IMG/VR virus record: IMGVR_UViG_3300002920_000014
Coordinates: 1-64,000 of that record
Strand: one strand, 5' to 3'
DNA: 64,000 bases
Origin: a virus
Part shown: positions 25,749-61,851 of the stretch, piece after piece
How positions within the stretch are numbered: the first letter of the stretch is position 1
Layout: every line of letters begins with the position of its first letter
The notes under the pieces: model-generated
The model's input: the letters and a program-made list of their open reading frames with translations, nothing else
Told to the model about the DNA's origin: nothing
Databases searched by the model: none
Position numbers and translations under genes: made by a program

Positions 25749-28553
25749 TCAGTCATGACTTAAAAGCTCCTCGGCATACTGAATTGATTTTACCAAACGG
25801 GGATAGATTGTCAATAGTTTCTGATGAAGTTCAGATAACACCCATTCGTACTTAGGTCTATTGACGTTTTTAATAGCAATCATATATTCGTCAAACGTAG
25901 GAGTCAAGTACTCCTGAGTTGTACCGTTGACCGACGTGAACGGCACAACCATTTCATGGTACTGATTAACTACATCACCAAGTATATACGCATACTTAGC
26001 ATGTATAGGTAGATCAACTTCTTGTGAAACCACTTCTTCAGGTTTATCACGATCGGCTTTACACCAAGTTATCCACTCATCCAAACTGTGAAACACACGC
26101 TCATCCCACTTCCACACAGGAGCTTCTTCTTCGCCTTCTGCGTATGGGAAAAACCCATACTTATTAGCGTAACGACTAGTATCTTGAGGGTAAGGTCTGT
26201 TATGACGATAACCCCACTTCTTAGCATTACTACGAGGGCAATACTCAGCTGAGAAACTAATATAAGGGATTGTCCGCTTCGTCAGTGAATCAGGAGCAAC
26301 CGACCCCATAATGCCACAAATAATCGGCACTACAAGATCAACCTCATCGTCATAAACAGCAACGATGATACTATCGTGAATGTTAAGCGCGATATAACTT
26401 TTGAAGCCTCGCTCAATAAAAGCTTGGCTGATCTTCAGCATAGCGTTATGGATGAGGATAGACACACCACCTTGCTGCAAGTAATTCCATTGGGGGTGTG
26501 TCACAATTTCTGGCTTAGAAATCATTTTGCCATTAACAATCTGAGGCGTCTTATACTGCTGTCTGTCTAGAACATGATACACGGGAACACTGACACGAGA
26601 CTCATCCCACAAAGGAACATAAGCTACATAACCAGCTTCATACCTCTTGCTACAATTAGTAGCGTACCTCTTCTTAGCTTCTTCAATCGAAGGAAAAGCT
26701 TTCTTACGCGCGTCAATAATGTCCTGAGCTTCTTGTAAAGAACAGCCAATCTCGGCTGCAATCTTGGCTGCACCTGCGCCATAAGGTATGGCAAAAGTGG
26801 GCGCTTTGCCGAGTTTACGTATCGCTTTAAGACCTTTCTTGTCCCCAGCTTCCCTCAAAGCTTTGACTCGATCAGGCCAGTAAACTTCAGCCATTGCCAT
26901 ATGAAAATCTGAACCCATAACAGCTTTAGCAAAAGCATCATCTTTGCCGATAGCTGCACCCATGAAACTTTCAGCATTACTGTAGTCGAACTCCACCAGA
27001 GTTGCCCCCTCTGGAGCGACAAATACACCAGCAAAATCACCCAAAGGAATGTTCTGCAAATTGGGCAAAGAGGACGAATCACGTCCTGTGCGAGTGAAGG
27101 GTCCAATTAAAGAGTGAATACGACCATTGTACACATGCTGACGTATCTCTTTATAGCGCAAATATAGAGCTTTAGCATCTAAGTACTTGCGGTATTCGGC
27201 AATAATACTATACCCTTCAGGATCACACTCACACACCCTTGGGTAAGGATTTTCAACCCCCAGATAATAATCCACCGCGTCTTTGCTAAACGAACGATGA
27301 CCTTTCTCCGTGAGAAGATAAGCATGAGAGGACAACTCTTCTTCGTTAGGCATAGGGATTTTTGCAACCCTTTCAATGAGCAGACGTTGAAATTTATCTG
27401 CATTAAGAAGGTCGTTCAAATCTCCCCCCTTAAAGGATGTAATAGTCGCCATAAATGCCGATCCTAAATCAAGATCGCAACGTATGGTGTCGAAAGCTGA
27501 CAAATTTGTATAACTCTTCAGGATCGGCATAATAACTGAAGTTAGATCATCTCGCTTGTATGTATGCCCAGGAAGAAACTCAACCCCTAAACTTCCATAC
27601 TCAGGCAACCACCAAGCCGGTACTTTAATATTCTTATTCGACCCAGCCGACGAAACCATGTTACTTACTTGAGTTAACCAAGTGTAACGCAAAAACTTGA
27701 GAATATCCTCGTAGTCTGCCAACAAACACAACACAGCAGTACGTTTGAACACCTCCAACGCAGAAGCACTCTGTTTAGTATGCGAATCAGCGAGCTTAAA
27801 ATCCAAATACTCTACGTCAACATGAACCCCTCGTATAGACTGATTGACACACTCCGTAAGTAAACGTCTCCAAAAAGAGAATAGAGTCGGAATGCTAGAC
27901 CATTTAGGTACTACGACAGGCTCAGGTTTGGTCAAAAGTTTGCCCCCCTTAACTGGCGTCAAATGATAAGGCACTTCGGTATCCTTAAACTGGACGCTGT
28001 TAACAAACTCAACTTGAGCCTCGTACAAAGCATACGTAACATACACGTCTTTCTGTACGTACCACAGCCAATTTTCCTGATCAGCGTCACCATCACCAGA
28101 ACGAACTTTCTTCATCCCTCTGTAGCGGTTCAAGTCAGATTGATCGAGAATAAACTCAGCGTAATAATCCAGAGAGCGTTTGTCGTCCGGGTCACCCCAC
28201 AAAAGGCGGATGGACAGAGCGTATGTATCGTGGACTATCGTGGTATGGTGAAGCTGGAAGCCAAAGTGAACACCAATATGGCGCATGTCGAAAATGACGT
28301 TATGCCCAACAATAAGTAAGTTTTCTCTAATGAGAAGATCACGAACAAAACTTATTTGCTCCTCGCTGTAATCAACAGACAACGTGAGATACTCGTCCAG
28401 AAAAGGGCTATAAAAGCATATGAGCGTAATCGGAGAAGCAACCATCAAACCATAGTTTTTATAGTCAATGTGTCCAACTGTCGTCTCTATGTCCAAGACA
28501 ACAGTCTGCACAGAAGAAGTAATCCATTTAACTCGTAATTGTTCGTAATCCAT
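25749..28553 (-). CDS. family A DNA polymerase with 3'-5' exonuclease domain
   Basis: Exo I is LDIETT, Exo II is HNVIFDMRH and Exo III is YVQKD. Pol motif A is DYSNAESF, motif B is RKLGKAPTFAIPYG and motif C is NIHDS. Confidence 0.9.
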   Translation of the reverse strand: MDYEQLRVKWITSSVQTVVLDIETTVGHIDYKNYGLMVASPITLICFYSPFLDEYLTLSVDYSEEQISFVRDLLIRENLLIVGHNVIFDMRHIGVHFGFQLHHTTIVHDTYALSIRLLWGDPDDKRSLDYYAEFILDQSDLNRYRGMKKVRSGDGDADQENWLWYVQKDVYVTYALYEAQVEFVNSVQFKDTEVPYHLTPVKGGKLLTKPEPVVVPKWSSIPTLFSFWRRLLTECVNQSIRGVHVDVEYLDFKLADSHTKQSASALEVFKRTAVLCLLADYEDILKFLRYTWLTQVSNMVSSAGSNKNIKVPAWWLPEYGSLGVEFLPGHTYKRDDLTSVIMPILKSYTNLSAFDTIRCDLDLGSAFMATITSFKGGDLNDLLNADKFQRLLIERVAKIPMPNEEELSSHAYLLTEKGHRSFSKDAVDYYLGVENPYPRVCECDPEGYSIIAEYRKYLDAKALYLRYKEIRQHVYNGRIHSLIGPFTRTGRDSSSLPNLQNIPLGDFAGVFVAPEGATLVEFDYSNAESFMGAAIGKDDAFAKAVMGSDFHMAMAEVYWPDRVKALREAGDKKGLKAIRKLGKAPTFAIPYGAGAAKIAAEIGCSLQEAQDIIDARKKAFPSIEEAKKRYATNCSKRYEAGYVAYVPLWDESRVSVPVYHVLDRQQYKTPQIVNGKMISKPEIVTHPQWNYLQQGGVSILIHNAMLKISQAFIERGFKSYIALNIHDSIIVAVYDDEVDLVVPIICGIMGSVAPDSLTKRTIPYISFSAEYCPRSNAKKWGYRHNRPYPQDTSRYANKYGFFPYAEGEEEAPVWKWDERVFHSLDEWITWCKADRDKPEEVVSQEVDLPIHAKYAYILGDVVNQYHEMVVPFTSVNGTTQEYLTPTFDEYMIAIKNVNRPKYEWVLSELHQKLLTIYPRLVKSIQYAEELLSHD

Positions 28554-28794
28554 GTGTCATCTCCTAAAACCTCGATTTACTTGTTTATCGTAACAAGAAG
28601 TAGTCGTTTGTCAATAGACAGTCAAAACGTCGATAAAGCCTCAAAAATAAAGATAAAGTACCCACGTACCACTCAACAGAATTAAACGATTCTAGAGGCC
28701 TTCTAGGCCGTTTAAAAGGCATTCCTAAAATAGTCCACGGGAAACACAATCTTTATTCAGGGGAAAAGGTGGGGTGGATTATTAAAATAAAATT

Positions 28795-28846
28795 AGTTGC
28801 ACCTACATCACCTATAATAATTATTATAGGTGATGTAGGTGCAACT
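28795..28846. repeat. perfect 52-bp palindrome (AGTTGCACCTACATCACCTATAATAA / TTATTATAGGTGATGTAGGTGCAACT)
   Basis: Verified base by base. It begins 2 nt past the helicase stop. Its arm is near-identical to the palindrome at 53442-53484. Confidence 0.9.
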
Positions 28847-28848
28847 AA

Positions 28849-31023
28849 TCATAAGCTCATCTTTAAACCCTCCATCTTCTGTATAACGTGGGTGGCAAAC
28901 ACTTGGTGTGTGATGAGCGCAGCGGCTTGTTTTTTGGACAGTTTGTACGAAACATTTATTCCAAGACTCTGTAAATACGCTAATTGTTTGTCAGTAGCGT
29001 CTTCTTTTTTGTGCTTCCAAGAGGCTGACTTCGACGCAAAAGCTTTAGTTATCTCTTGTTCTTCAGCCGCCTGAACTATTTCCAAACTATCACTTTCTAG
29101 TGCGTTAATGTCGCTATTAACAGCCACAATGGTACTACTGATACTGCCACCCTGCTTAGTAACGAGCCATAAACTGAATTGGCTAAACAATTCTGCCGCT
29201 TTGCGCAAACGCTTTGTCGTATCTGTTCCTGCTCCATCTTCTGTCTCCATGAGTTTGGCTATGCGATCATCAATTTCAGAGGCAACGGTATAGTTGGGTG
29301 GGTATATAACTAACGCTTTCTCTTGTCCGATACTCATTGACATCACAAGCGATTGATCTATGTGCCAATCGTTGCCTGATTTGTTAACGATTTTACCCAG
29401 ATCGTAGATAGTATCCCCACCATATACTTTAAAACCTGTAGTTAGGTTTCGTATATCTCCTTCGGAAATATCTTCTTCGTTGGTCATAGCGTCATACAAC
29501 GCCTTGATGATTTTCTTTTGGAGTTTTGTTATGTTGGGTATATCTTTTGCTAAATCTTCCAGACTATTGATCGTGTTATAGACATAGGTTTTGTCTTTTA
29601 TAAACGATTGAAGATTTCCCCACTCAATCATCTGATCTTTTTTACCTTGCATAATCGCTTGGATGAGGTAATTCAGAGCTTCTACCAAATCTACATCCAC
29701 ATCGACTTGCTTTGTAAAAGGATCAACTTTGTAACCCATAATAGAACCAATACTGCTGATTACCAACTGTTGACCAGTGAAGTCAATTAGTTGCATATCC
29801 TCTTTTCCAGGGAAAAGACGTATGGCTCGACCAATAATCTGGGTGAACGTCAACTCGTTTACTTTACGCGCTAGGAGAATGGCTGAGCATCTGGGCAAAT
29901 CAATACCTTCAATTAACACATTGAAATTGGTTAATACCTTAATTTCACCTTCTTGGAACGCTTGAAAAAGTTTGCCCCGATCTTTGTTACTTACAAAGTT
30001 ACCGTGTTGATCTATGCACCCTTCTCCGTCTATGTGCGCGCAAGGTATACCATTTTCGTTAAACTTGGCGGCAAGCATTTTACTAGCAGTAATAGGGCCA
30101 ATGTCACCAATTCTTCCAACATAGGCGATAGCACTACGGTCGGATGCGTTGTCTAAGTAAGCTTTTACGATAACATCTGCCCAATTTTCTAGTTTAGTGA
30201 CGAATTGATTGTCTGTTTCGTTATCTCCGTCAACTGTAAATCCTTTTGCTGAAACTACAATTGGGTCAGCAAACGGTACGACATACCCGTGTTCTATGGC
30301 ATACTGGATTGTCCGGTTAGCAAACACCCTTTCAAAAATTGTGTTTAACCCTCTGCCGTCTGTGCGGATAGGGGTCGCTGTGTTGCCGATGATTTTCAGT
30401 TTTTTGCGACCCATAGCTGCATATAACTGCTTAATACGCTCAATCAGTACCAAAGATCCATCAGCTACCGCATGGTGCGCTTCATCGTGAATCCATAAAT
30501 CTATTGGGCCACCATTAGCTAATATTTCATCAAAACGGGGACTTATTAAAAACCTACGAGGGGAGTTGGGTCTTTTGACGACGTTACCATACTTATCAAC
30601 AGTAAAATCAGCTTTATCTATTGGATGAGATTCAGGATCCCCTCTGCCGATAGAGTCACTTTTATCTACGAGAGTTTGAATGGAAGCAGATATGATTCTC
30701 GCATTAACATGGTTAATCGACCCCATGACAATTCCAAAACCCGGGTATGATTTGTGATTGACTGTGATATACTTGTCAAACTCTGGTAAGAATTTTCTTA
30801 ATTCTCTGTCTGACTGGTAAACGAGTCCTTGATTTACCCCACCGACGAACAATGATCGATAACCTTTTAAAGGATTAGCAAAGCGCCGAATACTTTCGGC
30901 GCTTATAATGGTTTTTCCTCCTCCTGTAAAAATTCTGTATATACCGCTACTTACACCCTGTTCAAAAGCGTTTTGGGCCGCATTTACTGCATCTTCCTGA
31001 TACGGTCTTAACGATATCGCCAC
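28849..31023 (-). CDS. SF2 DEAD/DEAH-box helicase
   Basis: LRPYQ N-terminus. Motif I is TGGGKT, motif II is HDEAHH, motif III is TATP and motif VI is QIIGRAIR. GTG start with GGAGG 6 nt upstream. Confidence 0.85.
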   Translation of the reverse strand: MAISLRPYQEDAVNAAQNAFEQGVSSGIYRIFTGGGKTIISAESIRRFANPLKGYRSLFVGGVNQGLVYQSDRELRKFLPEFDKYITVNHKSYPGFGIVMGSINHVNARIISASIQTLVDKSDSIGRGDPESHPIDKADFTVDKYGNVVKRPNSPRRFLISPRFDEILANGGPIDLWIHDEAHHAVADGSLVLIERIKQLYAAMGRKKLKIIGNTATPIRTDGRGLNTIFERVFANRTIQYAIEHGYVVPFADPIVVSAKGFTVDGDNETDNQFVTKLENWADVIVKAYLDNASDRSAIAYVGRIGDIGPITASKMLAAKFNENGIPCAHIDGEGCIDQHGNFVSNKDRGKLFQAFQEGEIKVLTNFNVLIEGIDLPRCSAILLARKVNELTFTQIIGRAIRLFPGKEDMQLIDFTGQQLVISSIGSIMGYKVDPFTKQVDVDVDLVEALNYLIQAIMQGKKDQMIEWGNLQSFIKDKTYVYNTINSLEDLAKDIPNITKLQKKIIKALYDAMTNEEDISEGDIRNLTTGFKVYGGDTIYDLGKIVNKSGNDWHIDQSLVMSMSIGQEKALVIYPPNYTVASEIDDRIAKLMETEDGAGTDTTKRLRKAAELFSQFSLWLVTKQGGSISSTIVAVNSDINALESDSLEIVQAAEEQEITKAFASKSASWKHKKEDATDKQLAYLQSLGINVSYKLSKKQAAALITHQVFATHVIQKMEGLKMSL

Positions 31024-43889: not shown

Positions 43890-44342
43890 TCAGCTATAGA
43901 TGAATTCGGGATGAGGAACTAACTTCTTCCCGAAAAACATAGGATACCCCACTAAGTGATTACCATCCGAGCTCTTACGAACGTAGGTAGTGATTGATGT
44001 ACGACGAGTTCCGTCATTCGACTCTCCATGTACCTCATAGTGGCCATCTGGACTAAGTTGAAGGCGACGATAAGGGACATTGAGGACAACTTGAATGTCT
44101 TTACTGTTGAGATTGACACGGCTAGGATCAAAAGCTTTCTTAGCCAAGACAGCGTGAAGCCTCTTGAAAATATCCCAAGCCTCATCTACTTGAGTGGCCA
44201 ACTCAACACTAACAGTTCCTTTGCTGATTTGCTCCTCTTCCATCAAGTCCCTTAAATTAAGGTATCTAAAACCTTGATTGATGTAAGTTCTCCACTCATT
44301 CTCTTCAATACGTTTCACACCCAACAAAATACACCCCCTCAT
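43890..44342 (-). CDS. hypothetical protein (start uncertain)
   Basis: 150-aa ORF. There is no SD before the ATG at 44342. A TTG at 44327 follows GAGGGGG. Confidence 0.45.
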   Translation of the reverse strand: MRGCILLGVKRIEENEWRTYINQGFRYLNLRDLMEEEQISKGTVSVELATQVDEAWDIFKRLHAVLAKKAFDPSRVNLNSKDIQVVLNVPYRRLQLSPDGHYEVHGESNDGTRRTSITTYVRKSSDGNHLVGYPMFFGKKLVPHPEFIYS

Positions 44343-44355
44343 AATATTATAATAA

Positions 44356-44395
44356 ATGTACCTATAATGTTAATCCAGTATAGGTACATTGTCAA
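44356..44395 (-). promoter_or_regulatory. promoter-like element (TTGACA-17 nt-TAACAT) overlapped by an 11-bp inverted repeat
   Basis: The -35 is at 44395-44390 and the -10 at 44372-44367. The inverted repeat ATGTACCTATA (44356-44366) / TATAGGTACAT (44379-44389) brackets the -10. Confidence 0.45.
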
Positions 44396-50207: not shown

Positions 50208-50456
50208 AATCTATCTCCGCGCCACTTTGGGCTGTCGCTACACCCTGCCACCAATTAAGCCGGTGACCAGCCAGTGGAGCTGTGGGGATTTGCACCCCAA
50301 TCCAGCCCGCCTGCCTTGTCAAGGCCGCCCCCTATCCTGTGCGCCTTCACGGGGGTCTTACGCGGCTCAGCGGGCTGTCGACACTATACCAGCCCCGTAT
50401 TTTGCGCGTGTAGGATGCGCGCCCCCCTTGAATCGACTTAGCGCCTTAATGCCAGT

Positions 50457-51540: not shown

Positions 51541-51570
51541 GATTTTTTCCTCGTCTTTGCATATATCAAA

Positions 51571-51647
51571 AACACCAGGTGGGATTCGAACCCACAAAAC
51601 CGTTTATGTCAGAGTTGTCTGATGAGACAAGTCTAACATCTGGTGTT
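51571..51647 (-). ncRNA. tRNA-like module 1 (acceptor-like stem + long hairpin + canonical T arm, no D arm)
   Basis: The - strand reads AACACCAG | ATGTTAGACTTGTCTCATCAGACAACTCTGACAT | AAACGGTTTT | GTGGG-TTCGAAT-CCCAC | CTGGTGTT, then TTTTT. Confidence 0.6.
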
Positions 51648-51650
51648 AAT

Positions 51651-51679
51651 AGTTTAACGTCATTTCGGACGGAAGTCAA
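51651..51679 (-). promoter_or_regulatory. sigma70-like promoter (TTGACT-17 nt-TAAACT) abutting tRNA-like module 1
   Basis: The -35 is at 51679-51674 and the -10 at 51656-51651. It is embedded in a 68-nt block identical to 52708-52775. Confidence 0.5.
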
Positions 51680-52013: not shown

Positions 52014-52045
52014 GATTTTTCTCCTTACTGTTCTTGTATACAAAA

Positions 52046-52116
52046 AACACCAGGTGGGATTCGAACCCACAAAACCAATTATGACAGACTTTGTAAAAAA
52101 TCTGTCATCTGGTGTT
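52046..52116 (-). ncRNA. tRNA-like module 2
   Basis: The - strand reads AACACCAG | ATGACAGATTTTTTACAAAGTCTGTCAT | AATTGGTTTT | GTGGG-TTCGAAT-CCCAC | CTGGTGTT, then TTTTT. Confidence 0.6.
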
Positions 52117-52139
52117 ATAAAGAATGGATTGATATTTAA

Positions 52140-52601: not shown

Positions 52602-52640
52602 GATGTTTCTCCTATTCTTGTATTACATTCGCGTACAAAA

Positions 52641-52715
52641 AACACCAGGTGGGATTCGAACCCACAAGACCAATTATGACGTACTACCCACATAGACAGT
52701 ACGACATCTGGTGTT
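52641..52715 (-). ncRNA. tRNA-like module 3
   Basis: The - strand reads AACACCAG | ATGTCGTACTGTCTATGTGGGTAGTACGTCAT | AATTGGTCTT | GTGGG-TTCGAAT-CCCAC | CTGGTGTT, then TTTTTT. Confidence 0.6.
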
Positions 52716-52718
52716 AAT

Positions 52719-52747
52719 AGTTTAACGTCATTTCGGACGGAAGTCAA
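52719..52747 (-). promoter_or_regulatory. sigma70-like promoter (TTGACT-17 nt-TAAACT) abutting tRNA-like module 3
   Basis: The sequence is identical to the 51651-51679 element. Confidence 0.5.
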
Positions 52748-52785: not shown

Positions 52786-53121
52786 TTAGTTTCTCGGAGA
52801 AAGTCTATCCAAAATGGGCGGGGGGATCTTGTCCCCTACCCATAAAACCGGTGTTTGTCCCCTCAGACCCACTACGGGGTACTCTTCTGGGGAGACAAAC
52901 GCCCCAACGAAATTTTCCCAAGCTTTCATAAGCTTGGGGTCGTCTGAGACGCCCCCATATTCGTGGAGGAGGGTTATCACCTCCACGAGGAGCTCGTGGA
53001 GGTCCACAACGCCATCTTCAAGAATGTAAGACGGCGCCACAACCCTCTCAACTACTTTTTCAACCTCAATCACTTTCTCAATCACTTTTGGCGCAAAAAA
53101 GCGCCGAAAAAACTTGAACAT
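52786..53121 (-). CDS. hypothetical protein; GC-rich paralog of backbone gene 43386..43796
   Basis: TAAGGAGGACAC upstream of the ATG. Collinear similarity to 43386..43796 over most of its length (see that entry). Confidence 0.6.
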   Translation of the reverse strand: MFKFFRRFFAPKVIEKVIEVEKVVERVVAPSYILEDGVVDLHELLVEVITLLHEYGGVSDDPKLMKAWENFVGAFVSPEEYPVVGLRGQTPVLWVGDKIPPPILDRLSPRN

Positions 53122-53376
53122 GTGTCCTCCTTATAGGCGATTAGAGCGATTTTTACAGCCCCTAGGTAGAGGTACAAGCCTGGGGGCTGTAAAAACGCTT
53201 TATAGGCCCTTGTGGGCCTTGTATGAGGCACTAGAAAAAACACCTAATGCCCCCCACAAGAGTCACAAGGGGTGACGGCCCGTACGGATAAGGCTGGCTA
53301 GGCCCCTGGGTAGCCCGTACACTCCCAGGAAAAGGTCATCCTCGTAATAAAATATACTAATATTTTGGTATTAATT

Positions 53377-53548
53377 ATGTTGATTAAAAAATCAACTATG
53401 CTAGTATTATGTCAGTACGGTGTCAGTACTGACAGGGAAACGCACCTATATCACCTATTATATTATATTAGGTGATATAGGTGCATTTTGCACCCTTCCC
53501 CTGAAAAAACTAGCATAGTGTTGACATAGTTGATTTTTTAATCAACAT
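53377..53548. repeat. 172-bp nested inverted-repeat structure in an AT-rich patch
   Basis: The outer arms are 53377-53404 and 53510-53548; the right arm carries an 11-nt insertion. The central palindrome is GCACCTATATCACCTA-11 nt-TAGGTGATATAGGTGC at 53442-53484. There are inner palindromes GTTGATTAAAAAATCAAC, GTCAGTACTGAC and GTTGATTTTTTAATCAAC. Confidence 0.85.
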
Positions 53549-53647
53549 GTCAGCACTACCCCATTTTAACACGGGGTAAAAAATTTTTTAACTTGTGTTA
53601 AAATTTAATTTTAAACTAGCAAAAAAATTATTTTAACTCATTTTAAA

Positions 53648-53793
53648 CCCCAGCCCCAGCCCCTCATTAGGGCTGGGGCTGGGGGCTGGAGGCTGGGGTA
53701 TGGGGGCTGTATTCGCCCCCATACCCCACAGCCCTTGTGGTGATTACGGGGGCTGGAGGCTGGGGTATGGGGCTGTATTCGCCCCCATACCCC
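53648..53793. repeat. GC-rich hairpin repeat cluster
   Basis: One 15-bp hairpin is CCCCAGCCCCAGCCC / GGGCTGGGGCTGGGG at 53648-53684. There are also two copies of GGGGGCTGGAGGCTGGGGTATGGGG(G)CTGTATTCGCCCCCATACCCC, each forming a 12-13-bp hairpin (53695-53727 and 53762-53793). Confidence 0.85.
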
Positions 53794-53806
53794 AGTTCTT
53801 GAGCCT

Positions 53807-54085
53807 CTAAACCCCGGGGGGGAGAATCGGCTTGGGCCGATTTTCCCACTTCAGCATCATTGCCCTAACTTCCTCGGGCAGACGCGGGTCATCGGGCGTT
53901 ACGACTTCTATCCCGTTTGGGCCACTATATACCCAAATTTTTTCACGCCATAGCCATCTTACCGTGTAGGCTTTTTCCAAAATCAACCCCCCGTCCCGAC
54001 GGAGGGGCCCCCAACACACTGCATGAGGCAGTGTGTCCAGGGTATAAAAAAACCCAATGCGTTCGCGCTTGTTTGACTTTTTCAT
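53807..54085 (-). CDS. hypothetical protein (GC-rich island)
   Basis: 92-aa ORF with GAGGATACG upstream of the ATG. Confidence 0.5.
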   Translation of the reverse strand: MKKSNKRERIGFFYTLDTLPHAVCWGPLRRDGGLILEKAYTVRWLWREKIWVYSGPNGIEVVTPDDPRLPEEVRAMMLKWENRPKPILPPGV

Positions 54086-54183: not shown

Positions 54184-54657
54184 CTAGTCGAAGTCGTATT
54201 CGTATTCCGAGTCGTCAAGGTCCAAGTCAAGGTAGGTGACTTTTGAAAGAGCCTTCTTTATGAACGCTCTTACCTCACCGTATACCGGTCCGCACTGGTT
54301 GAACCAGTGCCAACTGGAATAAGTAGTCAACTTGGACGCAAAGAACTTAAGCGCCGCCCCCACTTGGGGCGGTAGAGGACTTGGGTTACAACCGTACCAG
54401 GCTAGACGGCCTTCAAAGACGCGAATGCGTCCGACGTATGCTGATGAGCGTTTACCCGTACTGTCTACATTGGCCATACGGACGGCGTATATGTTTTCCG
54501 TGTTCTTAACAAACGCCAGCGTCATAAAGCTGGCGTTTGTTATGTTGCCATCTTCACGCTCGACTTCTACAAGTAAGCTAAACCGCCCCGTCGCTTTTTC
54601 TTCTTTTTTGGCGGCTTGGCGGGCGTTTAGGGCGTTTATGTATTGCTTGGCGTTCAT
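54184..54657 (-). CDS. hypothetical protein with acidic C-terminus (GC-rich island)
   Basis: ATG at 54657 is preceded by TAAGGAGGCTATC. The longer ORF start at 54705 lacks an SD. Confidence 0.55.
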   Translation of the reverse strand: MNAKQYINALNARQAAKKEEKATGRFSLLVEVEREDGNITNASFMTLAFVKNTENIYAVRMANVDSTGKRSSAYVGRIRVFEGRLAWYGCNPSPLPPQVGAALKFFASKLTTYSSWHWFNQCGPVYGEVRAFIKKALSKVTYLDLDLDDSEYEYDFD

Positions 54658-54705
54658 GATAGCCTCCTTATGGTTAACGGTTAGCAGTGCCTCAATCTGA
54701 GACAC

Positions 54706-55517
54706 TAGTAAGGGCCGTAACGTATGGCACGTTACGGCCCTTACTATTGGCTCGATTGATACGGGCTACTGTGACGGGCGTCACAGTAGCCCTAATCTTG
54801 TTGATTGCCCCCCTCGGGGTCAACGGGCGGGAGTCCTCATACCCTATGCCAGCTTACCCTCGTACATTGTACTACTCTCAGACTGGCCCGCGCCTCGCCC
54901 CAGCTAGTTGACTTACGATACCTTAAGTCCCTGTTACTGAAACTTACGCGGCTACTCTCTTACTACTCCTGCCGGTTGTCTTTTGCCCGTCTATAGCCAC
55001 TTGAATGACTTACCGTCACCCGTATGGGCTATTCGTGGCTATGGCCCGCGGGCGGGGTAACCCCCGCCCACAAGTAGCGCTAACCGTCTGCGCCTCAGCT
55101 ACGCCCGCGGCCAGCCCAAAACTGGAACTTGTTCCAGTGCTGGTAACGTCTCGGCCCTCACAGCTCGCCTTACGCTGTTCCGAGTTTCGAGGCGTCCCGT
55201 ATACCGCGTCTAGGTATCTAGACTTACGGGTCATCCCGCCCACTCGGGCGACAGCTTCCAGTGACGCTCTTAGGGGCGTCACCGTTAAGGGCGGCCGTTC
55301 CCAGTTCACCGCTGGGCCTCGGGGGCTTTCACCCCGAGCTAGGCTCGCCGTCCTCTAATCATGCGCTTGGGGGGTAACCCGCCCCAAGGGCTTTTCGAGG
55401 GACTTACTCGCGCGGGCGCATTCCGCGCATTAGGCAGCGCTCAATTGTTAAGGAGCGTTTGGGGGCGTTCCGTCTACCCCCTCGGGGGGGCTGGCCCGTC
55501 TGCCAGCCCGTCTTGAC
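54706..55517 (-). ncRNA. candidate large structured RNA or ~0.8 kb structured 5' leader (bounds approximate)
   Basis: There is no convincing ORF on the transcribed strand. At least 12 GC-rich hairpins are present, including a perfect 16-bp stem at 54707-54745 and a 13-bp stem at 54763-54792. GGGGTAACCC-type loops recur. A sigma70-like promoter lies immediately upstream. Confidence 0.45.
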
Positions 55518-55523
55518 ACTGAC

Positions 55524-55552
55524 ATACTACCTCGCCCCGTTAGCGGAGTCAA
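55524..55552 (-). promoter_or_regulatory. sigma70-like promoter (TTGACT-17 nt-TAGTAT)
   Basis: The -35 is at 55552-55547 and the -10 at 55529-55524. An AT-rich, UP-like stretch lies upstream on the - strand. It points into the structured region. Confidence 0.55.
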
Positions 55553-55605
55553 CTGTTTAGCCGTTTTCTTTAATCTGTTTCTCATGTTTTTCATTTTGGG
55601 GCGTC

Positions 55606-55800
55606 GCCAGCTGCTCCAGCAACGGCAGTCTCCAGCTGCTCCAGCAACGGCAGTCTCCAGCTGCTCCAGCAACGGCAGTCTCCAGCTGTTCCAACAACGG
55701 GCGTCGCCCGCTGTTCCAACAACGGGGGCGACTGCTCCAGCAACGGGGGCGACTGCTCCAGCAACGGCAGTCTCCAGCTGCTCCAGCAACGGGGGGCGAC
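55606..55800. repeat. eight tandem iteron-like repeats (21-25-nt period)
   Basis: The core GCTG(C/T)TCCA(G/A)CAACGG starts at 55610, 55635, 55660, 55685, 55710, ~55731, ~55752 and 55777. Confidence 0.9.
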
Positions 55801-55992
55801 TGCTTTTACCAGTCTTTAGGGGTGTATTCTTGTTCTGTTTTTTGTTGTGTGTACTGTCTGTTACTTTTTAAGTGTCAAGGCTATGTGTATATTACTAACA
55901 TATAGCTTTGTTACAATTATTATGGAATATTCCGAAATGTTTGAATCACGTTGTGACAAACGTATCGAGATTTTTTATGAATTTTTTAATTA

Positions 55993-56022
55993 TTGACTTT
56001 TGATACTAGTATGTGGTATAAT
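55993..56022 (+). promoter_or_regulatory. strong sigma70-like promoter (TTGACT-18 nt-TATAAT, TGG extended -10)
   Basis: The -35 is at 55993-55998 and the -10 at 56017-56022. It shares ATGTGGTATAATTAATTA with the promoter at 61822-61851. Confidence 0.65.
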
Positions 56023-56859: not shown

Positions 56860-57459
56860 ATGTCTACGACTAAAGCTGCTCGTTTGGCAAAAGTCAATTT
56901 AAAAAATGAAATACTTCGCTGTGCTACTATCGACGGGTTGTCTGTGCCGGCTATAGCGGATAGTTTGGGTATTTCGGAGACAGTTGTGAAGTCCGCTCTT
57001 GACGAGGCTCAACGACAAGCTGATTTACTTCATACTGATTTGGTTACCCGATATAAGATTCTTAATCTGAGTAGGTTAAATTCCTTGTATGAGGCTGTTG
57101 AACCTTACGCTCTTGGGGAGGTTGAGGTGTTGGGGGGTGCCCCAAGTCCACAGCACGCTAAGTTGGCTCTTGACATCATCAAGCAAGTAGATGCTATGTT
57201 GCCTAAATTAATCACCAAAGAAGACTCAGATGTTAAGAAGATGACGATTACTATCTCCAGAGATGACGATATCTATAAAGCGGCTAGTATGCACTTAGAC
57301 CCAGGTCTTCTTGTTCAGGTTCTTAAAGACAATTACGAAGTTGATTCTGCTTACATGCCTGAAATTAATACTCCCACTGTTGTAACTGATCCCTCTGTGT
57401 TCGGGGAAAGTTTTGAGCGATTACATAGTGCCATAGAGGATGATCTTAATGTCACTTAA
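56860..57459 (+). CDS. terminase small subunit candidate (HTH)
   Basis: N-terminal helix-turn-helix (GLSVPAIADSLGISETVVKSAL). It lies directly upstream of TerL and overlaps it. Confidence 0.55.
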   Translation: MSTTKAARLAKVNLKNEILRCATIDGLSVPAIADSLGISETVVKSALDEAQRQADLLHTDLVTRYKILNLSRLNSLYEAVEPYALGEVEVLGGAPSPQHAKLALDIIKQVDAMLPKLITKEDSDVKKMTITISRDDDIYKAASMHLDPGLLVQVLKDNYEVDSAYMPEINTPTVVTDPSVFGESFERLHSAIEDDLNVT

Positions 57460-58912
57460 AGCTGATGATGTTGAGAGTAAATTAATTGAGTTGGCTCGAT
57501 CATCCCCTTATTATTTTATTTGGTATGTATCAGGTCATCAACCTGCTACCCACCATGTTAAGTGGCTTAAGCTTTTGTTCTCTGAGGAACACACTCGCAT
57601 AAACATTGTTGCTCCTCGTGAGAGTGCCAAGACAACGATTCTTGTCTATTCTCTTCTTTGGTTGATGTCGATAAACCCCCTTTGGACTAATGCTATTGTT
57701 TCAGTTTCAAAAAGTCAAGCTCGTGAACGTTTAACTTTAATTCGCACTATTATTGAGACAAATCAGCGGTACAGGAATGTGTTTCCCCACATATTCATCG
57801 ACGAAAATCGTTCTTCAACTCAGGATACTTTTTCTCTTTGGGATAGCTCTTATCCAAGTTACGCTGCTTGGATGACAGAAGTTACTCAAAAGGGTTCATT
57901 AAAAGATCCCACACTGTTCGTTACCGGGGCTCTTGGTAAAGGTTTCATTGGTCGTCGTATTAGTGGATGGCTAGTTATGGATGACATTGTGGATGAGAGT
58001 TTGTCTAACCCCGCTGGTCAAGATAAGATGATGAGTTATATTATGACTACTCTCGAGCCTTGTATTAAAGCCAGTGGTAAAATCATTAACATCGGAACTC
58101 GTTGGATTATTAATGACGTATACGAGCGTTTGATGAACAACCCAAAGTGGACGAGTTCTGTAACAAGGGGCATAACTTACAACGAAGACGGTCAACCTGT
58201 GTCTTATTGGCCTGAGTTTTGGAGTCTTGAACGTTTGGAGGATAAACGGCGTATCATTAATGATGACCGTATTTTTGGCGTTATGTACTTGTGTGATGTT
58301 CATGCTAACGCTCTTGAACTTTTTAATTCTAAGACGGCTTCTAAAGACATACCTCATCCTTTGCCACCTTTTATTGGCGTATATGTGAGTACTGATTGGG
58401 CGACTTCTACTAAAGAACGCGCAGATTATACTGTGTTTGCTGCGTTAGGTGTTGATGCTCTTCACAATATTTATCTTTTGGATATGGAGCGCCGAAAAGA
58501 ACCTATTGATACCCTCATGGAATCTTTCTATGCTTTTGTTGATAGAACTTCGGCTCTGTACGGAAGATTGGATGCTGTTATTACCGAGAATGTAGCTTTC
58601 CAAAGTGTTATTTATGGCTTAGTTGCATCCGCCCGTCCTGACATACCTATAGTCGGTATTGTTCCTAAGGGAGATAAGACCCAGAGAGCGCGTGTTCTTG
58701 CTAATTATGCACTTAATGATAAGTTTTATGTTAATCAACGTATTGATCCTTATGTTCTCAAGGCGCTCAATGACGAGCTTGTCAATTTTGGTATCCATCC
58801 TCATGATGACACCGTGGATGCTTTGTCGCTTTTGTTTCAACACACAAAACTTATTTCAGTTGAGGCTAAAGTCGTTAAAGTTTTTCCTGGTAAACGACTA
58901 ACTCGTATTTGA
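57440..58912 (+). CDS. terminase large subunit
   Basis: The Walker A-like motif is VAPRESAKTT and Walker B is WLVMDDIVDE. The C-terminal RNase H-like nuclease acidic residues are seen in VSTDWATS and HPHDDTVDAL. Confidence 0.85.
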   Translation: MILMSLKADDVESKLIELARSSPYYFIWYVSGHQPATHHVKWLKLLFSEEHTRINIVAPRESAKTTILVYSLLWLMSINPLWTNAIVSVSKSQARERLTLIRTIIETNQRYRNVFPHIFIDENRSSTQDTFSLWDSSYPSYAAWMTEVTQKGSLKDPTLFVTGALGKGFIGRRISGWLVMDDIVDESLSNPAGQDKMMSYIMTTLEPCIKASGKIINIGTRWIINDVYERLMNNPKWTSSVTRGITYNEDGQPVSYWPEFWSLERLEDKRRIINDDRIFGVMYLCDVHANALELFNSKTASKDIPHPLPPFIGVYVSTDWATSTKERADYTVFAALGVDALHNIYLLDMERRKEPIDTLMESFYAFVDRTSALYGRLDAVITENVAFQSVIYGLVASARPDIPIVGIVPKGDKTQRARVLANYALNDKFYVNQRIDPYVLKALNDELVNFGIHPHDDTVDALSLLFQHTKLISVEAKVVKVFPGKRLTRI

Positions 58913-61821: not shown

Positions 61822-61851
61822 TTGACTCACATCGTATTAATGTGGTATAAT
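61822..61851 (+). promoter_or_regulatory. strong sigma70-like promoter (TTGACT-18 nt-TATAAT, TGG extended -10)
   Basis: The -35 is at 61822-61827 and the -10 at 61846-61851. Its architecture matches the promoter at 55993-56022. Confidence 0.65.

Follow-up and report, generated by a model that had tools for sequence, protein, structure and literature searches.

Which function does a short AT-rich, non-coding patch serve inside a GC-rich block of small phage genes? The question is raised by positions 53340 to 53650 of a 64,000-nt stretch of the IMG/VR virus record IMGVR_UViG_3300002920_000014, here called the window. The window comprises 64 kb of a 73.7-kb JGI contig, of which about 9.7 kb lie beyond it; the scans of the phage sequence covered the window. 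It holds most of one phage genome (40% GC), and the phage is lytic, long-tailed, uncultured and not T4-like. Where replication starts and how genes are regulated has been worked out for hardly any uncultured phage, and this lineage is without a cultured or annotated relative. An earlier note, made from the sequence alone, had ascribed to the patch the look of a replication origin or of a packaging or resolution site. We tentatively prefer another reading, in which the patch would be a protein-recognised control region acting at the DNA level, at an operon junction in the leftward arm of the genome. In kind the patch is ordinary, a phage intergenic control site. Its form is unusual, with concentric nesting and a phased array.

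Anatomy of the AT-rich patch

The whole patch is contained in a 685-bp non-coding spacer between two leftward genes, for products of 92 aa and 111 aa, both of which carry Shine-Dalgarno-like sequences as read from the sequence. No open reading frame (ORF) of at least 40 aa overlaps positions 53276-53666. The GC content over the 311 bp of the patch is in the lowest ~2.5% of 300-bp windows. Thus the patch is AT-rich, ORF-free and surrounded by a GC-rich island, as had been described before. The coordinates of all features are listed in Table 1.

The palindromes named in the earlier note were all present where it had placed them or within a few bases. The outer arms had been given as 53377-53404 and 53510-53548. 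Over 24 nt these arms form a perfect inverted repeat, but the longer arms align only with an 11-nt insertion (TCAACACTATG) in the right arm. The 24-nt arm has two exact sites in the window, compared with 0.47 expected when up to two mismatches are allowed, and 124 nt separate the two repeats. The central palindrome with 16-bp arms and an 11-nt all-A/T centre was confirmed, and it extends to 25-nt arms (53438-53488) that are 92% complementary. The outer arms are centred at 53462.5 and the central dyad at 53463. The two centres thus agree within half a base pair, in line with the symmetry about ~53463 noticed before, and together the arms define a concentric palindromic unit of 172 bp (53377-53548). 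When the 186 nt from 53370 to 53555 were folded as single-stranded DNA, an energy of -49.5 kcal/mol was obtained, compared with -14.2 ± 2.8 kcal/mol for shuffled sequences (z = -12.45). None of 200 shuffles folded as well.

To the right of the palindromic unit follows an array of four tandem AT-rich units. At least five copies of TTTTAAC or GTTAAAA had been reported here. Four exact copies were found (53564, 53586, 53597 inverted and 53631), and five are reached when TTTTAAA is counted. On one strand TTTTAA(C/A) occurs five times with spacings of 22, 23, 22 and 10 bp, and the A- and T-tracts of the array are phased at 11-11.25 bp. Elsewhere in the window no site has three or more TTTTAA(C/A) boxes inside 90 bp. 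A 60-bp window at 53577 has a GC content of 10%, which is in the lowest 0.05% of the window, and the array is the most easily melted stretch of the island.

The best promoter-like match of the patch begins 3 nt beyond the central dyad and points leftward. A transcription start is predicted from it near 53399, and the left 18-bp palindrome would then lie at about +3 to +20. The terminator scanner did not call the central dyad on either strand; its sense-strand tail reads CCCTGTC. No Rfam family explains the patch, with only sub-threshold chance matches to miRNA or UTR (untranslated region) models.

Table 1. Coordinates of the patch, its components, the related dyads and other features of the window (HTH, helix-turn-helix)
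Feature	Position	Strand	Remarks
Non-coding spacer, 685 bp	53122-53806	.	Holds whole patch; between leftward genes 53807-54085 and 52786-53121 (ORF list)
AT-rich patch	53340-53650	.	GC 0.29, versus 0.51 in the island (49.8-55.85 kb) and 0.40 in the window
Left outer arm, 24 nt, ATGTTGATTAAAAAATCAACTATG	53377-53400	+	Perfect inverted repeat of 53525-53548
18-bp palindrome GTTGATTAAAAAATCAAC (GTTGATT-AAAA-AATCAAC)	53379-53396		In left outer arm
CTAGCATAGT box	53395-53404	-	Inverted partner 53510-53519, shifted by the 11-nt insertion in the right half
Weak promoter-like match CTGTCA-18-CATAAT with TG	53406-53435	-	9/12
TGTCAGTAC boxes, two direct copies	53409-53434	+	11 bp apart
12-bp palindrome GTCAGTACTGAC	53422-53433		Formed by second TGTCAGTAC copy
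Central dyad: GCACCTATATCACCTA 16-nt arm, 11-nt A/T centre, TAGGTGATATAGGTGC	53442-53484 (core)	.	
Right outer arm, 24 nt	53525-53548	-	Perfect inverted repeat of 53377-53400
Mirror 18-bp palindrome GTTGATTTTTTAATCAAC	53529-53546		In right outer arm
Further TGTCAGTAC-type copy, ATGTCAGCAC	53547-53556		
Four tandem AT-rich ~22-bp units, consensus ATTTTAAC-N6-TAAAAAA	53560-53648	+	
Three GC-rich hairpins	53648-53684, 53694-53728, 53760-53795		Directly 3' of stop codon of gene 53807-54085; without U-tract
Paralogous dyad, perfect 58-bp palindrome, arm core GCACCTACATCACCTA	28792-28849	-	Starts at helicase stop codon
Short-form dyad AATGTACCTATA-N12-TATAGGTACATT	44355-44390	-	In 61-bp intergenic gap
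Family-A DNA polymerase (PolA)	25749-28553		Leftward arm
SF2 (superfamily 2) helicase	28849-31023		Leftward arm
Tape-measure protein, 3,636 aa	3094-14004		Rightward arm
Putative small terminase (terS)	56860-57459		Rightward arm; weak HTH match
Large terminase (TerL)	57440-58912		Rightward arm
tmRNA tRNA-like-domain resemblance, ~125 nt	50272-50396	-	
Three paralogous tRNA-like elements, ~80 nt	51559-51654, 52034-52124, 52629-52722	-	
GC-rich (about 0.6) 855-nt stretch without convincing ORF	54706-55560	-	Starts at leftward promoter TTGACT-17-TAGTAT (55552-55524)

Related dyads in the window and in relatives

The arm of the central dyad (GCACCTAYATCACCTA) recurs in a second dyad at 28.8 kb, where both arms have C at the place of T in the patch. 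A third dyad, of a shorter form, is located at 44.37 kb. Inverted pairs of ACCTAYA or GYACCTA were found at exactly these three loci of the window (28.8, 44.37 and 53.46 kb), compared with 0.03-0.06 expected by chance. All three loci are intergenic and all are on the leftward arm. Alignment of the family revealed a constant outer stem, AA-n-G-Y-ACCTAYA...TRTAGGT-R-C-n-TT, and a variable interior. The half-sites are spaced by 26 nt at 28.8 kb, 25 nt at 53.46 kb and 12 nt at 44.37 kb. A centre made of A/T only (TA) and 11-16 nt long is present in 9 of 9 long-form dyads, counting those of relatives, and the centre of the short-form dyad has 5 nt. Based on these features, we infer that the three related dyads are recognised by one sequence-specific DNA-binding protein encoded by the phage. 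What had been a single odd palindrome becomes a testable family of cis-elements. Its half-site is GYACCTAYA, it is represented three times in the window, and its placement ahead of the DNA polymerase gene is maintained in all relatives examined. Exact motif scans for the central dyad gave no matches in viral, metagenome and genome collections. Including the flanks of the 28.8-kb and 53.46-kb dyads raised their alignment score only from 58 to 63, which is too weak for use.

The other two members stand next to transcription signals. The 28.8-kb dyad passes the terminator scan on the sense strand, where its hairpin adjoins the stop codon and is followed by a U-tract, and lies ~190 bp upstream of a TATTGACA-type promoter of PolA. 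The 44.37-kb dyad overlaps two promoter-like sequences, TTAACA-16-TATAAT (11/12) and TTGACA-17-TAACAT (10/12).

Relatives were sought for comparison. A megablast search with the region 49.5-57.5 kb against deposited phages gave no match, and TerL is at most ~25% identical to that of known phages. The sole close relative is a pair of Logan contigs (L011 and L012) from SRR15359041, with 84% identity in the helicase and 88% in TerL. On one side its assembly ends at ThyX, on the other within GC-rich repeats. L011 has a dyad at the same place between helicase and PolA, with no change in the core GCACCTACAT. Compensatory changes in the inner half and the outer flank of this dyad, on both arms, maintain the stem. 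The TATTGACA promoter downstream of it is conserved as well.

The non-coding gap before PolA was of similar size throughout, with 296 bp in the window, 297 bp in L011, 315 bp in L017/L018, 332 bp in L019 and 249 bp in L103. In each of these relatives the gap holds a lineage-specific TA-centred dyad. L019 and L103 have the outer boxes TGTTACCAA/TTGGTAACA, equally spaced around a (TA)n run, and the L019 dyad is located ~45 bp upstream of a TATTGACA promoter. In L103 the complementarity of the inner arms is lost, but the boxes and the TA spacer are kept. The comparison suggests that selection retains the boxes and the TA spacer, not the long stem. Thus, recognition on DNA is favoured over a pure RNA stem.

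Two more distant relatives, L015 and L014 (TerL 42% identical), were compared on the terminase side. L015 has an 89-bp dyad before the rightward arm and an inverted copy of this module 4.3 kb away. One of the two dyads (A) is 30 bp upstream of a 12/12 promoter, the other (B) ~210 bp upstream of another 12/12 promoter. Both promoters are directed away from their dyads. In L014 a 48-bp dyad together with a third half-site stands upstream of a 10/12 promoter with TG. Only one GYACCTA dyad was present in the distant relatives, in L014 and with a twofold excess of half-sites, which is not compelling. Taken across the relatives, long TA-centred dyads stand at the heads of transcription units, 30-210 bp upstream of sigma70-type promoters directed away from them.

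By inspection, the inverted copies in L015 (3824-3960 and 8030-8179) extend over more than 130 bp and include the dyad, a second palindrome, the promoter and a leader. They bracket a 4.3-kb segment of mixed gene orientation. Such a layout is reminiscent of operator/promoter sets that form a left and right pair, or else of the two ends of a segment that can invert.

Control region, origin or other element

A control region at a transcription-unit boundary is favoured by the dyad positions at all three loci, the association with promoters in relatives, the hypervariable ORFan setting and a resemblance to the composite promoter/stem-loop cassettes (PeSLs) of T4-type phages (Arbiol 2010, PMC2839356; Comeau 2014, PMC4122927). 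The core of the patch is one of three related dyads, each of which marks an operon junction. The central dyad, bound by its protein, might end or insulate transcription coming from the upstream genes, and it would stand immediately upstream of a weak promoter serving the downstream genes. The identical 18-bp palindromes, which are 150 bp apart and equidistant from the dyad, could act as operators, and looping could bridge them. The four phased 22-bp A/T units may provide curved or easily opened DNA upstream. Such a site could double as a transcription-activated origin.

In PeSLs, which are located at gene junctions, a conserved stem-loop directly precedes a sigma70-like promoter and is itself preceded by AT-rich sequence; they are described from a hypervariable ORFan setting (PMC4122927). 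The 44.37-kb dyad and the dyad-promoter modules of L015 and L014 match this layout. In the patch the promoter match is 9/12 and the start codon is ~275 nt away. PeSLs also occur in dozens of copies, in contrast to three dyads in 64 kb and only one in the island. Furthermore, the dyad arms found here are much longer (16-29 nt) and enclose a TA-only centre, and in the patch the dyad is accompanied by a concentric outer repeat, the two 18-bp palindromes and the phased array. Should the dyads work as junction or operator elements, the concept of promoter/stem-loop composites would no longer be confined to T4-type phages.

Several observations weigh against a boundary element. None of the promoter-like sequences in the patch is of the phage's own TATTGAC type, the best of them reaches only 9/12, and the next start codon follows at a distance of ~275 nt. 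The central dyad of the patch has no U-tract on the sense strand. Neither the concentric 172-bp symmetry nor the 22-bp phased array is needed for a junction element, and TA-only centres of 11-16 nt suit DNA melting better than a simple operator role. The proteins scanned included no recognisable DNA-binding regulator. In addition, the assembly of the close relative breaks inside the island, and the patch itself has no counterpart for comparison.

A replication origin is a possible but less probable explanation. The patch would be one of two or three origins, perhaps activated by transcription. Inverted initiator boxes would enclose a melting centre rich in TA, and the phased array beside them would serve as unwinding element. 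The dyad between helicase and polymerase would then be a second origin or the primary one. This layout agrees with an array that is helically phased and the most easily melted part of the island (10% GC over 60 bp), with several distinct reiterated motifs within 300 bp and with a dyad paralogue in the conserved gap of ~250-330 bp before PolA, where each copy has an A/T-only centre of 11-16 nt. It is also consistent with the boxes and spacer of L019 and L103, which are conserved without stem complementarity. However, no initiator protein was recognised, and the ORFs flanking the patch have no Pfam or PHROG match. DnaA boxes were absent from the patch and from the other dyad sites. The third dyad overlaps a promoter within a gap of only 61 bp; together with the promoters beside the dyads of relatives, this suits a boundary or operator no less than an origin. 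The replication genes are distant from the patch, whose surroundings are a hypervariable ORFan island. The GC skew keeps its sign at 28.8 and 53.4 kb within a co-oriented gene block and has its minimum near 55.9 kb; since skew follows gene orientation, it is uninformative here. The origin-like architecture seen by the earlier note is therefore partly supported. The phased AT-rich array and the dyad paralogue in the helicase-polymerase gap bear it out as a fair description, but a recognisable initiator, DnaA boxes and an informative skew are missing, and origin-defining features beyond composition and repeats are not demonstrable.

Iteron-type origins with a DNA unwinding element are found in lambda (ori), SPP1 (oriL/oriR) and P4 (ori/crr), and SPP1 and P4 have a second, distant copy of the binding sites. 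Short reiterated, helically phased motifs beside an AT-rich segment and a distant second site are seen here too. At the patch TTTTAA(C/A) is repeated at 22/23/22 bp and TGTCAGTAC at 11 bp, both of them short motifs made up largely of A/T. In contrast to iterons, the array repeats are pure A/T without a specific G/C-containing core, the patch is not in or beside a recognisable initiator gene, and DnaA boxes are lacking. In herpes simplex virus (HSV), OriL adjoins the DNA polymerase gene. In HSV OriS, boxes flank an AT spacer and are bound by an SF2 helicase (PMC12543377). The inverted boxes around an AT-only spacer found here follow the same layout, occur in more than one copy per genome, and one copy is adjacent to an SF2 helicase gene. 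This likeness is architectural only; the phage helicase has no similarity to UL9/OBP beyond the SF2 core. It remains a rather unlikely extension, drawn by analogy, that this phage family uses HSV-OriS-like origins, with one copy fixed in the helicase-polymerase gap and the patch as a more elaborate second copy with its own unwinding array. Initiator candidates for such origins may be the SF2 helicase, acting via its C-terminal domain, or a 150-aa ORFan (43890-44342) that follows the dyad at 44.37 kb. Herpesviruses have origins of the box/AT-spacer/box kind, and the dyads, if they prove to be origins, would be their counterpart in a virus of bacteria.

The helicase, encoded next to a dyad, is RadD-like and has no recognisable origin-binding domain. 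Its structural model gave the best full-length matches with RadD, SauUSI and UvrB, and the HSV OBP was not in the top 50. The idea of a UL9-like helicase was rejected, as there was no similarity in fold or sequence to UL9/OBP beyond the generic SF2 core. The C-terminal ~295 aa (residues 430-724; 28852-29736, minus strand) are modelled with a pLDDT (predicted local distance difference test) score of 83, have no significant PDB match (best E = 0.29) and are conserved in homologues. From the model, this region may be a new domain. A search of IMG/VR with the helicase alignment revealed generic SF2 helicases without the C-terminal domain. The only IMG/VR match that spans this region, L027, was discarded. 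It is an unrelated GC-rich phage and has no gap after the helicase.

The boundary and origin readings are not mutually exclusive, since some phage origins, such as those of T7 and T4, are promoters beside unwinding elements.

An element acting at the RNA level is improbable, albeit with some evidence in its favour. Here the leftward transcript would fold into a row of hairpins for processing, 3'-end protection or termination. The minus-strand RNA of the patch folds with z = -9.7, and the island is full of intergenic structured RNA, including GC hairpins behind stop codons, the three elements that resemble tRNAs, a tmRNA-like domain and an ORF-free leader of 855 nt (z = -8.7). At 28.8 kb the dyad is a hairpin with a U-tract right after a stop codon, and the compensatory changes in L011 maintain the stem. 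On the sense strand the dyad mismatches read as G.U in the patch and, from the fold, likewise in L017 and L019; L011 has C-A besides G.U. The symmetric order of A-tract, stem and T-tract on both strands resembles a bidirectional intrinsic terminator, and the 28.8-kb copy passes the terminator scan. In contrast to such terminators, the dyad stems are 25-29 bp long, ~50% GC and conserved in sequence, and U-tracts are absent at the dyads of the patch, L017, L019 and L103. The pairing of the inner stem is lost in L103, where boxes and TA spacer persist, and what is conserved is the sequence at the stem base, not pairing alone. The mirrored outer repeat, 24 of 24 nt over a distance of 124 nt, has no obvious RNA role. 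The loss of pairing in L103 and the missing U-tracts weaken a purely RNA-level role.

We consider it very unlikely that the patch serves in packaging (pac/cos) or as the target of a resolvase or telomere-resolving enzyme. Palindromes with TA centres and bent A-tract DNA occur at sites of this kind. A putative small terminase with a weak HTH match is encoded in the window. However, the patch is ~3.2 kb from this gene, with unrelated genes and divergent promoters between them, and belongs to the opposite transcription arm. A single site would not come as three related dyads, and none of the ORFs scanned in the window gave a recombinase, integrase or protelomerase domain. The two functions proposed along with the origin are thus weak, for lack of a fitting position and of a cognate enzyme among the ORFs scanned.

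Hardly any weight is left for a foldback mobile element, similar to a miniature inverted-repeat transposable element (MITE), or for a decaying palindromic duplication without function: the 172-bp unit is AT-rich and non-coding and has perfect 24-nt terminal inverted repeats, but no target-site duplication could be read from the sequence, no second copy is present in the window, the paired repeat pattern is absent from IMG/VR, and the family of the central dyad has another long-form member that is positionally conserved in relatives. A 22-nt terminal repeat gave three isolated matches in genome and metagenome collections, none with a partner repeat, a dyad or similar flanks. The mobile-element reading was rejected, as the public collections searched held no other copies of the repeat pair.

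Gene arms and structured RNAs of the island

The control region proposed here would belong to a leftward arm that runs from ~55.5 kb to 22 kb and is the early/middle arm. It contains small ORFan genes, three tRNAs, a Toprim primase, a C5 methylase, ThyX, the SF2 helicase and the family-A polymerase. The rightward late arm opens at a strong promoter, TTGACT-18-TATAAT (55993-56022), and extends to the tape-measure gene. The length of the tape-measure protein implies an exceptionally long tail. A second rightward promoter (61822-61851) has a near-identical extended -10 region (ATGTGGTATAATTAATTA). The two arms are separated by a divergent promoter region near 55.9 kb, where the GC skew has its minimum. 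The ORFs scanned gave no recognisable integrase, repressor or partition protein.

The GC-rich island consists of small leftward ORFan genes with GC hairpins or tRNA-like elements between them. One island protein (54184-54705) was searched and had no homologue among 5.8 billion proteins. At the edge of the island the sequence of the close relative looks unalignable on inspection, except for the rightward promoter at 55993-56022, which is kept in L012 (about 510-540). The island is thus a hypervariable ORFan region. Between the divergent early and late promoters a GC-rich unit of 25 nt (GTCGCCAGCTGCTCCAGCAACGGCA) is repeated in tandem about 8 times (55603-55804). The tandem repeat of the close relative at the homologous place is another one (CCTGGGTGG, L012 1-30), and the contig breaks exactly there.

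The three tRNA-like elements are placed between small ORFs in a punctuation-like manner. They have a 7-bp acceptor stem (ACACCAG/CTGGTGT), a perfect T-arm (GTGGG-TTCGAAT-CCCAC) and 5-6 trailing T. The T-arm is identical to that of the phage tRNA-Leu. The D and anticodon arms are replaced by a variable hairpin of 8-10 bp that covaries among the copies. ARAGORN and the Rfam tRNA model do not call these elements, and a covariance model found no copies in the relatives' loci examined. In the tmRNA-like element a 5' GGGGCUG and a 3' GCUCCA are combined with a T-arm and with an acceptor stem that contains a G3.U70 wobble; there is no obvious tag frame. Its score with the Rfam tmRNA model (37 bits) was below the gathering threshold of 47, and the match was not reproduced with the short segment alone. 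The 855-nt stretch at the right side of the island has no Rfam match. It folds as RNA with many perfect hairpins (z = -8.7 versus shuffles) and may be a large structured early RNA.

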